Position numbers and translations under genes: made by a program. DNA of 64,000 nt, taken from the IMG/VR virus record IMGVR_UViG_3300045988_150172. One strand, 5' to 3'. This stretch comes from a virus. The notes beneath the pieces were generated by a model. The model ran no database searches. It saw only the letters and a list, made by a program, of their open reading frames with translations, and was not told the DNA's origin. Shown here piece after piece: positions 47,602 through 48,806 of this stretch; positions within the stretch are counted from its first letter, which is position 1, and each line of letters opens with the position of its first letter.

Positions 47602-47650
47602 CAAAGGTAGTTATCTTTCTTGAATATCCAAGGAGTTTATCAGGAATTCT
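47602..47650 (-). promoter_or_regulatory. Promoter/operator cassette copy P14 (minus strand)
   Basis: The reverse complement reads GAATTCCTGATAAACTCCTTGGATATTCAAGAAAgataacTAccTTTG, nearly identical to P1 including upstream flank. Confidence 0.7.
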
Positions 47651-47674
47651 TCAAAACTTTTTAATTAAGCAGCA

Positions 47675-47802
47675 CACCTCGATTTGGGGGTTTTATGCCC
47701 CGATTTGAGGGGTTTTACTAAATCGATTTTTACCCTTTTACTGAGAATACAAACATTATAAAATTGAGCCTTTTCTTCACACCTCGATTTGGGGGGTTTT
47801 AT
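47675..47802. repeat. Three copies of a roughly 20-bp motif C(A/C)CC(T/C)CGATTTG(G/A)GGGGTTTTA
   Basis: Copies at 47675-47696, 47697-47718 and 47778-47802. The last one encodes the Rep C-terminus (..KTPQIEV*). Confidence 0.7.
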
Positions 47803-48589
47803 CCTGCACCTGTTTGAAAATCTCAAATTGAATGTGTGTAACAGGCTTTCTACCCCGAATTATAGGACGACCAGGAACTTCCTTATAAAGTGGTGCAAAC
47901 GTAAAATTTAATACTGTTTGACAATCCATAAATGCTAATCTAGAAGCATCCAACCGTTGCCGTTTTATAACATCCCAAGATTCATCTGTATTTATATGTA
48001 ACAATTCTCTTAACTTTTCTATAGAAATTACAATTTGTCCTTGCTGTTTACTTAAAGAATAGTATTTACTGATAAATTCATACACATCCATAGTTGTTGT
48101 AGAATTCAACTTACATACGGATGGGATATGAACATTACGATAATTGTCTTTAATCACTTCTAAAAAGAATCTAACGGATTCAAGACCCATAACAATTTCA
48201 TTCTTAGTTCCATCCACTTCATCCCATATAATTTTAATAAATGGGAAAAATATGCGACCACGAGTTTTAGAACTTCCTTTTTCAAGAAAATAAGCATTTT
48301 TAGCCAAGGATAATAAAGCCTTTTTATAGGAAGTTCTAATTTTATTACGCACACTTAATAGGCGGATGTTTACCTTACAGTGAAAATAACAATAGGAATC
48401 CAAATCAAGTTCCCTTTTTAGGAATTTAATATAGGTTTCCCAGTTTTCATCAAGTTTGGTAAAGTCTATTTTACCCCAAAACGGCTGTAACTGTTGAGCG
48501 ACAAGATACAAGCATTTTCGTTGAGCAACGTTCCATTCTGAAAGATCCACTTCCATAGGAAATCTTACTGTTTCTATCATAATTTTCAT
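47777..48589 (-). CDS. Plasmid-type replication initiator (Rep_3/RepB-like, two winged-helix halves)
   Basis: LSEWNVAQRKCLYLVAQQL in the N-terminal half; STTTMDVYEFISKYY..ISIEKLRELLHIN..WDVIKRQRLDASRLAFMDC..GRKPVTHIQFEIF in the C-terminal half. 22-bp iterons lie upstream. Start moved to ATG 48589 downstream of its own promoter. Confidence 0.65.
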   Translation of the reverse strand: MKIMIETVRFPMEVDLSEWNVAQRKCLYLVAQQLQPFWGKIDFTKLDENWETYIKFLKRELDLDSYCYFHCKVNIRLLSVRNKIRTSYKKALLSLAKNAYFLEKGSSKTRGRIFFPFIKIIWDEVDGTKNEIVMGLESVRFFLEVIKDNYRNVHIPSVCKLNSTTTMDVYEFISKYYSLSKQQGQIVISIEKLRELLHINTDESWDVIKRQRLDASRLAFMDCQTVLNFTFAPLYKEVPGRPIIRGRKPVTHIQFEIFKQVQDKTPQIEV

Positions 48590-48600
48590 TTTATTTGCGG

Positions 48601-48632
48601 CAAATATAAATGTTTTATAGGTAAATAACAAA
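48601..48632 (-). promoter_or_regulatory. Canonical Bacteroidota promoter for rep
   Basis: The minus strand reads TTTG, 20 nt, then TAtaTTTG, with the ATG 12 nt later. Confidence 0.6.
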
Positions 48633-48662
48633 TTTATCATTTTACACTTGGCAATTAGAAGT

Positions 48663-48806
48663 ATAGGTTTTTGTGCAGAAAGTTATAGGTTTTTGTGCAG
48701 AAAGTTATAGGTTTTTGTGCAGAAAGTTATAGGTTTTTGTGCAGAAAGTTATAGGTTTTTGTGCAGAAAGTTATAGGTTTTTGTGCAGAAAGTTATAGGT
48801 TTTTGT
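48663..48806. repeat. Iterons: 6.5 exact tandem copies of a 22-bp unit
   Basis: ATAGGTTTTTGTGCAGAAAGTT repeats head to tail from 48663 to 48794, plus a partial copy at 48795-48806. There are no spacers. Confidence 0.95.

Follow-up and report, generated by a model that had tools for sequence, protein, structure and literature searches.

Initiators of iteron plasmids such as mini-F RepE, R6K pi and pPS10 RepA (Pfam families PF01051 and PF21205) have a double winged-helix (WH) fold. Direct repeats of about 22 bp, the iterons, lie directly upstream of their rep genes, the promoter is placed between iterons and gene, an AT-rich region is found on the far side of the iterons, and the C-terminal WH carries the iteron specificity. 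A similar arrangement is present in a 64,000-nucleotide stretch of viral DNA, IMG/VR virus record IMGVR_UViG_3300045988_150172 (called the window in the following, at its full length). A preliminary description of positions 47,602 to 48,806, made from the letters alone, had proposed a plasmid-type replicon inside a phage genome and concluded that the phage can be maintained as an extrachromosomal plasmid. We find that the module is a divergent new example of the known Rep_3/iteron replication unit, in an uncultured gut phage family. On balance, we think that it is probably the replication origin module of the phage of about 103 kb, in the sense of its main origin and not of a separate plasmid-maintenance replicon.

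Initiators and iterons in related systems

The module differs from those of iteron plasmids in several respects. The phage Rep stays under the Pfam cut-off, its structure-aligned identity to RepE and Rep-iteron structures is only 12-16%, and there is no NCBIfam family for it. The phage iterons are exact copies, and the origin is free of DnaA boxes. Moreover, the module is part of a 103-kb phage that supplies helicase and polymerase itself, and screening of approximately 90% of the genome revealed no partition locus (see below).

Phage P1, with its oriR iterons, repA and incA iterons, provides a parallel in setting, namely a phage genome with a plasmid-style initiator and repeats of about 20 bp on both sides of its gene. 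P1 keeps this Rep/iteron replicon for the prophage. Both of its repeat sets bind the same RepA. P1 further encodes parABS and an immunity system, and its lytic replicon is a separate one. Unlike in P1, the downstream repeats of the present phage differ from the origin iterons, P1-type downstream control iterons of the same specificity are absent, and no par, immunity system or second replicon was found in the screened part of the genome.

O protein and ori-lambda of the lambdoid phages are similar in that the initiator is phage-encoded, comes with four or more iterons, and varies in its specificity domain together with the iterons among related phages; O serves in early theta replication, as Rep would. 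O belongs to a family other than Rep_3, and ori-lambda is embedded in the coding sequence of O, unlike the iterons of the present phage, which are intergenic and upstream of rep. When cloned together with oop, the iterons of ori-lambda exclude rep-lambda phages (PMC3349717). In the RepA replicon of the Vibrio cholerae satellite PLE, DNA-binding domain and iterons also covary in a modular fashion, with the rest conserved (PMC8263062). PLE RepA/ori modules were swapped repeatedly, and pressure from the origin-directed nuclease Odn was proposed as the driver (PMC8263062). In contrast to the phage Rep, the PLE initiator is of the RepA_N type with an N-terminal specificity domain, and PLE itself is a satellite rather than a complete phage. 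Finally, crAssphage (Carjivirus communis) is likewise a gut Bacteroidales phage without an integrase and with a plasmid-family replication gene (PMC10983915). The initiator there is RepL (PF01719), the lineage is another one, and the claim for crAssphage has culture data behind it, unlike the sequence-based reading of the present phage.

A divergent Rep_3 initiator

The rep gene (47777..48580, minus strand) encodes a Rep_3-type (WH1-WH2) replication initiator of 267 amino acids. Pfam family matches, a profile match to R6K pi and structure modeling together establish it, at the family level, as a divergent Rep_3 (RepE/pi-type) double winged-helix initiator. By itself, the window Rep scores 20.9-21.5 bits (E-value 3-5e-4) with Rep3_N (PF01051, the N-terminal WH1), for which the gathering cut-off is 22.4 bits. 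When the window Rep was aligned with six database homologues (48-96% identity), Rep3_N was matched by all seven family members (best E-value 2.8e-9) and Rep3_C (PF21205, the C-terminal WH2) by four of them (best E-value 4.6e-6). The window Rep also matches phrog_4402, annotated as "replication initiation protein" (6e-6). A family profile built from 15 sequences matches R6K pi (2nra) with an E-value of 3.6e-5; a PDB sequence search with the 7-sequence profile gave no match.

An earlier AlphaFold (AF2) model from 7 sequences was poor (pLDDT 59.6) and was replaced by a model based on a deeper alignment (pLDDT 78.4, pTM 0.75). In a Foldseek search of the PDB with this model, the top 45 matches were all mini-F RepE or Rep-iteron complexes, with alignments of about 260 columns and TM-scores up to 0.51/0.61. 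The overall fold of two winged helices and the WH2 domain are both found in the Rep family. In sequence space, the Rep family is isolated: of 1.84 billion representatives searched exhaustively with a profile, a single cluster scored below 1e-30 and no more than 46 scored below 1e-3. Neither INPHARED phages nor PLSDB plasmids contained a DNA or protein match to the Rep region.

The start of rep is likely at 48580. The mechanical open reading frame (ORF), 47777..48640, corresponds to the ENA call and would yield 287 amino acids, and a further in-frame start at 48589 would yield 270. We favor 48580 because 48640 is located upstream of the rep promoter, because the homologues begin with MIETVRF/MFETIR, and because the ATG matching 48589 is out of frame or absent in relatives of 92-94% identity (L003, L006, L011, L007). 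Neither the 267- nor the 270-residue version is on record as a called gene.

The rep promoter (48601..48632, minus strand) is of the Bacteroidota host type. Its boxes can be read directly from the window sequence, with a -33 TTTG (48632-48629), a 20-nt spacer and the -7 element TATATTTG (48608-48601). The combination of TTTG and TAnnTTTG boxes is the Bacteroides (Bacteroidota housekeeping) promoter consensus. An equivalent ...TTTG element is found at the same position before rep in the relatives, including distant ones.

Most of what the preliminary description had read from the letters of this region is borne out. This applies to the Rep_3-like initiator with paired winged helices, which the profile searches and the AF2/Foldseek comparison support, to its C-terminal sequence (...IRGRKPVTHIQFEIFKQVQDKTPQIEV), to the minus-strand promoter about 30 bp from the repeats, and to the exact 22-bp head-to-tail array itself. 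For the proposed ORF of 270 amino acids, the start at 48589 is now the alternative and the start at 48580 the preferred one.

Iteron types, a probable origin core and downstream repeats

Tandem Repeats Finder (TRF) reports the array upstream of rep at 48662-48806, with a period of 22, 6.6 copies, 100% matches, 0 indels and a score of 290, and a second repeat-finding run on the window recovered the identical 22-bp array. The exact head-to-tail copies (48662..48806, no strand) have the unit ACAAAAACCTATAACTTTCTGC in rep orientation. No further occurrence of this 22-mer was found in the 64-kb window, even with up to 4 mismatches allowed. Array end and -33 box of the rep promoter are 30 bp apart, and the tandem repeats adjoin rep, as do the 17-22-bp iterons of Rep_3 systems.

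We compared the locus with that of 11 relatives, found in IMG/VR and in metagenomes; their contigs measure 33-105 kb, and seven are of 98-105 kb. In all of them, the conserved block is followed by the tandem repeats, the promoter and rep, and then by short repeats, a phage-type promoter and small genes. The closest IMG/VR relative, UViG ..._160295, did not contribute a rep locus; its contig stops within the neighboring gene. The upstream arrays of the relatives are located at the site of the window array and consist of 1.6-4.1 exact copies of 22-23-bp units. In three of seven metagenome contigs (L006, L007 and L008; 100-104 kb), position 1 falls within the iteron array, probably due to assembly breaks at exact repeats, and iteron copy numbers from short-read assemblies may therefore be underestimates.

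Window and relatives together contain five unrelated iteron sequences. In rep orientation, the units are ACAAAAACCTATAACTTTCTGC for the window type (6.6 copies), ACAATGAACTATAACTTTCTGC for type A1 (3.6 copies), AATAAAAACCCATCCTTGGACG for type A2 (1.6-2.6 copies), AAAGGGGTAAAATGAGTCCGAT for type B1 (4.1 copies) and TGACAACAACCCAAGGATGGTCG for type B2 (2.8-3.8 copies).

The iteron type changes with Rep residues 181-240. Calculated in 30-residue windows, Reps of types A1 and A2 are 85-93% identical in residues 1-180 and only about 53% identical in residues 181-240. For types B1 and B2, identity is 87-100% at the N-terminus and falls to 37-70% over residues 181-240. According to the AF2 model, the variable stretch covers the WH2 helices 190-197 and 205-222 and the next strand, and helix 205-222 should be the WH2 recognition helix, as judged from winged-helix topology. 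Since iteron sequence and WH2 recognition region change together, the 22-bp repeats appear to behave as the iterons of Rep, and we predict that Rep recognizes them. We regard this covariation as the strongest in-silico indication of Rep binding to the repeats. More distant Rep relatives (19-26% identity) are found in other phages of about 100 kb, where rep is preceded by four exact 21-22-bp repeats and a host-type promoter. The distant Rep clades yielded one further viral locus only.

The iterons adjoin a non-coding block of 289 bp (48822..49110, no strand), which is 96-98% identical across nine phages, even though their Reps are only 48-50% identical and the flanks of the block only 50-80%. 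The block contains an invariant AT-rich segment of 99 bp (48878-48976, 28% GC), five GGTTATA motifs and three of the five exact window matches of GGTTATAG. A palindrome, CTGTGCCACAG, is located at its iteron-proximal end (48820-48830). Predicted structures include a long AT-rich hairpin or cruciform (48881-48937, z-score -5.2) and several GC-rich hairpins, the last of which is a terminator-like stem (49068-49087). Its position and the fact that it does not vary with the type of Rep are as expected of the constant portion of an origin, which would comprise an unwinding element and sites for conserved phage or host factors. The GC skew of the window follows gene orientation and is uninformative on the origin. 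An RNA role was also considered for the hairpins. No Rfam family matches the block, no compensatory changes were seen in the GC-rich hairpins, and this role is not supported, because two stem positions change without compensation. Overall, the origin architecture is cleanly modular.

A second group of repeats is located downstream of rep (47673..47801, no strand). It consists of four "P" units of about 22-24 bp, ATAAAACCCCCAAATCGAGGTG and variants in rep orientation, and was detected by TRF (47679-47729), as repeat family D3 and by script matches. The end of rep, from its last codons to the stop codon, overlaps with the first unit, which encodes C-terminal Rep residues. With the origin iterons of the window itself, the downstream units have only the A-rich 5' half in common. 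In relatives, the same site is occupied by units identical to the origin iterons of other types (L001 10826-10870, L004 ~3838-3885, L005 3772-3850, L007 ~975-1040). A1 units are found downstream of A2 and B1 rep genes, A2 plus A1 units downstream of one B2 rep gene, and a B1-like unit downstream of an A1 rep gene. Iterons of the phage's own type were not found downstream of rep in any phage compared, a statement that is statistically weak with three independent downstream modules. A self-control role of the downstream repeats, similar to that of P1 incA, was rejected, because the sequences are not of the phage's own type.

Phage origin versus plasmid-maintenance replicon

The window is part of a contig of 103,293 bp (ENA ERZ19693190), which is circularly permuted relative to it. 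The contig junction is near window position 13.2 kb, and the assembly runs through the iteron array. Genes were inventoried in the window and in about 26 kb of the remaining genome, taken from near-identical relatives, altogether about 90% of the genome. Most likely, the phage is an uncultured myophage of virulent type, of about 103 kb, that infects gut Bacteroidota. The structural genes include portal, an SU10/SPO1-like capsid, terminase (the large subunit with Hint/LAGLIDADG inteins) and tail genes. The replisome genes encode a split DnaE (with an intein in some members), a DnaB-like helicase, NAD ligase, RNase H, RecA/UvsX, SbcCD and HU. Genes for dUMP-hydroxymethylase, HMUD2, hmdU kinase, dUTPase/DCD and a ThyA-like protein are also present, and this 5-hmdU gene set would imply hypermodified thymidine in the phage DNA. 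The hmdU/DnaE/terminase region corresponds to L022/L023 1-10000 (upstream of window position 1) and L056 2998-7939. Other genes encode a sigma factor (27896-28519), GroEL and BACON-domain proteins. The nearest cultured relatives by capsid, at 35% identity, are the Bacteroides thetaiotaomicron phages DAC19-23, which we take to be virulent.

No integrase, ParA/ParB or repressor family was detected by Pfam and PHROG in the 47 larger window ORFs or in the remainder of about 26 kb, with about 5-6 kb and many small ORFs unscreened. The statement in the preliminary description that the window has no integrase is therefore correct, and the wider search that it suggested, for parAB or an integrase elsewhere in the genome, found none in the part covered by near-identical relatives. 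Its suggestion of a plasmid or carrier state finds no independent support. It had also divided replication between Rep for plasmid life, and DnaE together with a "30-kb repeat region" for lytic growth. This division fails, because the repeats in question are dispersed promoter copies. The window has 11 copies of the motif CTTGGATATTCAAGAAA with a TAnnTTTG-like box (versus 0.4 expected), at positions 3126, 12314, 13942, 30731, 38423, 39993, 44639, 47616 (minus strand), 49562 and others. It precedes gene blocks, and its copies are probably what had been called the 30-kb repeat region.

Our preferred explanation, that the module is the main origin of the phage, starts from the Rep_3 fold and family, the iterons, their covariation with WH2 and the ultra-conserved AT-rich block. 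We propose that rep would be transcribed early by host RNA polymerase from its host-type promoter, and that Rep monomers would bind the tandem 22-bp iterons, with the variable WH2 stretch and its predicted recognition helix reading the type-specific iteron part. The loaded array would open the adjacent invariant AT-rich core, and the DnaB-like helicase and DnaE replisome of the phage would be loaded at the opened core. Early timing, core melting, helicase loading and the status as main origin are what we infer from this arrangement. A second initiator/origin pair was not found in the inventoried genome.

Several observations weigh against this explanation. Rep_3 initiators are classically plasmid proteins, and the window Rep itself falls slightly under the Pfam gathering threshold. 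Transcription of rep from a host-type promoter would also suit a plasmid state. DnaA boxes are not enriched in the window, and there are none in the origin. Other origin-related players are present, since the phage encodes a protein with the C-terminal domain (domain IV) of DnaA (29304-29849, plus strand, 181 amino acids, Pfam 1.9e-9); its gene is the only other initiator-related one found, and no repeat array or DnaA-box cluster is attached to it. The unscreened 5-6 kb and the small ORFs might hide a small system for partition or immunity. Finally, the link between the site and initiation is a computational one.

The main alternative is a dedicated low-copy replicon for plasmid maintenance in an episomal phage (phage-plasmid or carrier state) that uses another mechanism for lytic replication. 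We consider it unlikely, but not to be dismissed lightly. A Rep_3 protein with upstream iterons is the classic design of theta plasmids, and rep has a host-type promoter while its neighbors depend on the phage-specific motif. The phage combines structural genes with a plasmid-family replication gene, as expected for a phage-plasmid, no integrase was found in the screened 90% of the genome, and the repeats on both sides of rep resemble oriR-repA-incA of P1. In addition, crAssphage, another gut Bacteroidales phage, was argued to be a phage-plasmid from its RepL genes (PMC10983915). However, the resemblance to P1 does not extend to the type of the downstream repeats, which differ from the origin iterons, unlike in incA. 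The partition system of a phage-plasmid was not seen in the scans of larger ORFs, nor was a toxin-antitoxin maintenance pair or a repressor detected in the same 90% of the genome. A second origin/initiator pair for lytic growth was not found in the screened part of the genome, and the 30-kb repeats are promoters. The complete replisome and the hypermodified-thymidine pathway fit a virulent lifestyle, as do the DAC19-23 phages. Relatives of Rep or of the capsid protein were found neither in 185,579 species-representative genomes nor in PLSDB (72,556 plasmids); together with the missing repressor, this is only weak evidence against episomal carriage. A plasmid lifestyle is thus unsupported, because par, integration and immunity genes were not found, the gene content is of virulent type, relatives are absent from the collections of bacterial genomes, and the 30-kb repeats are promoters.

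The foreign iterons downstream of rep can be explained in different ways. They might be decoys that act by titration or handcuffing on the initiator of a co-infecting relative, with plasmid iteron incompatibility as a precedent, and such a conflict might drive rapid swaps of WH2/iteron cassettes on an invariant core; from the sequences at hand, this seems rather improbable to us. In its broader form, the module as a whole would be a semi-autonomous, exchangeable cassette, diversified by conflict with co-infecting relatives, satellites or origin-directed nucleases, and the downstream iterons would be decoys or incompatibility determinants. This we judge very unlikely, even though each of the five iteron types has its matching WH2 variant while the remaining backbone is conserved, and exact A1 or A2 iterons are found downstream of rep in A2, B1 or B2 phages, never those of the own type. 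The three IMG/VR genomes, of types A1, A2 and B2, also carry one shared IMG/VR dataset number, and precedents exist in the exclusion by ori-lambda (PMC3349717) and the RepA/ori swaps of PLE (PMC8263062). The "never own type" rule is, however, statistically light with only three independent downstream modules. Moreover, neutral layering, in which recombination at the conserved core and at the 5' halves shared by the iterons replaces cassettes and leaves old iterons in place, explains the orders A2|A1 and B2|A2|A1 equally well. The last possibility, that the repeats do not bind the initiator but mark a terminus or packaging site, or arose as an assembly artefact, is hardly credible. It would account for the contigs that start within the array, but assemblers often break at exact tandem repeats, the window genome was assembled through its array with the junction elsewhere, and independent assemblies from different studies have arrays with different sequences at one and the same site.

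If the module is the phage origin, as we favor, a concrete origin and initiator can be assigned to an uncultured family of human-gut phages of about 100 kb. With one constant origin core, the family offers naturally matched pairs of Rep and iteron specificities, which could help in studies of how winged-helix initiators change their DNA specificity and in the construction of Bacteroidales vectors. Caution is indicated for the phage-plasmid label, which a phage genome does not earn through a Rep gene of a plasmid family alone. If the decoy reading were true, the foreign iterons would represent phage-versus-phage interference at the level of replication.

Neighboring genes and other elements

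The preliminary description had placed rep at the head of the only minus-strand island of the window (45.3-48.6 kb) and had noted a secreted protein in it. The island is confirmed and conserved in relatives, and it contains a protein with a signal peptide (46691-47248). It may be the only stretch of genes on this strand, apart from a possible minus-strand ORF at 13491-13931. Downstream of rep, the island comprises six small genes without assigned function (45325..47547, minus strand), coding for proteins of 94 amino acids, 185 amino acids (secreted), 171 amino acids (coiled-coil), 57 amino acids, 67-84 amino acids (an ORF) and 151 amino acids. Their order is conserved, they are called in ENA records, and their products had no informative PHROG, Pfam or NCBIfam match. 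A copy of the phage-specific promoter motif, CTTGGATATTCAAGAAA ... TACCTTTG (47602..47632, minus strand), is located ahead of these genes in a block that is highly conserved in relatives. Two copies of the motif flank the rep island in inverted orientation. Since the phage-specific promoter drives the small genes below rep, the island would consist of at least two transcription units.

A tRNA-like element (49166..49259, plus strand) is located between the origin core and the late-gene promoter and matches the Rfam tRNA family with 41 bits. ARAGORN reports an odd anticodon of 4 bases for it and calls no tRNA at this element in the relatives. The anticodon arm contains an insertion of 34 nt, and the insertions in relatives are very different. 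Acceptor and T stems show compensatory changes in relatives.

Cargo with toxin domains is variable. The window encodes a Gln_amidase protein (10995-12065) and a RelA_SpoT-like protein (12363-13091), the latter replaced by a Zeta_toxin protein in one relative (L022 19817-20531). An LPD29 polyvalent-protein domain is encoded at 32840-33739. Three tandem paralogs of about 225 amino acids each, with an N-terminal BACON domain, are found at 24880-26952 and are followed by a ferritin-like gene (26979-27431). At 30110-30241, a 24-bp motif, GGTCAGGnnnGTATCATGTTGAGG, occurs three times with a spacing of exactly 54 bp, which could reflect either repeated coding sequence or an array with a regulatory role.

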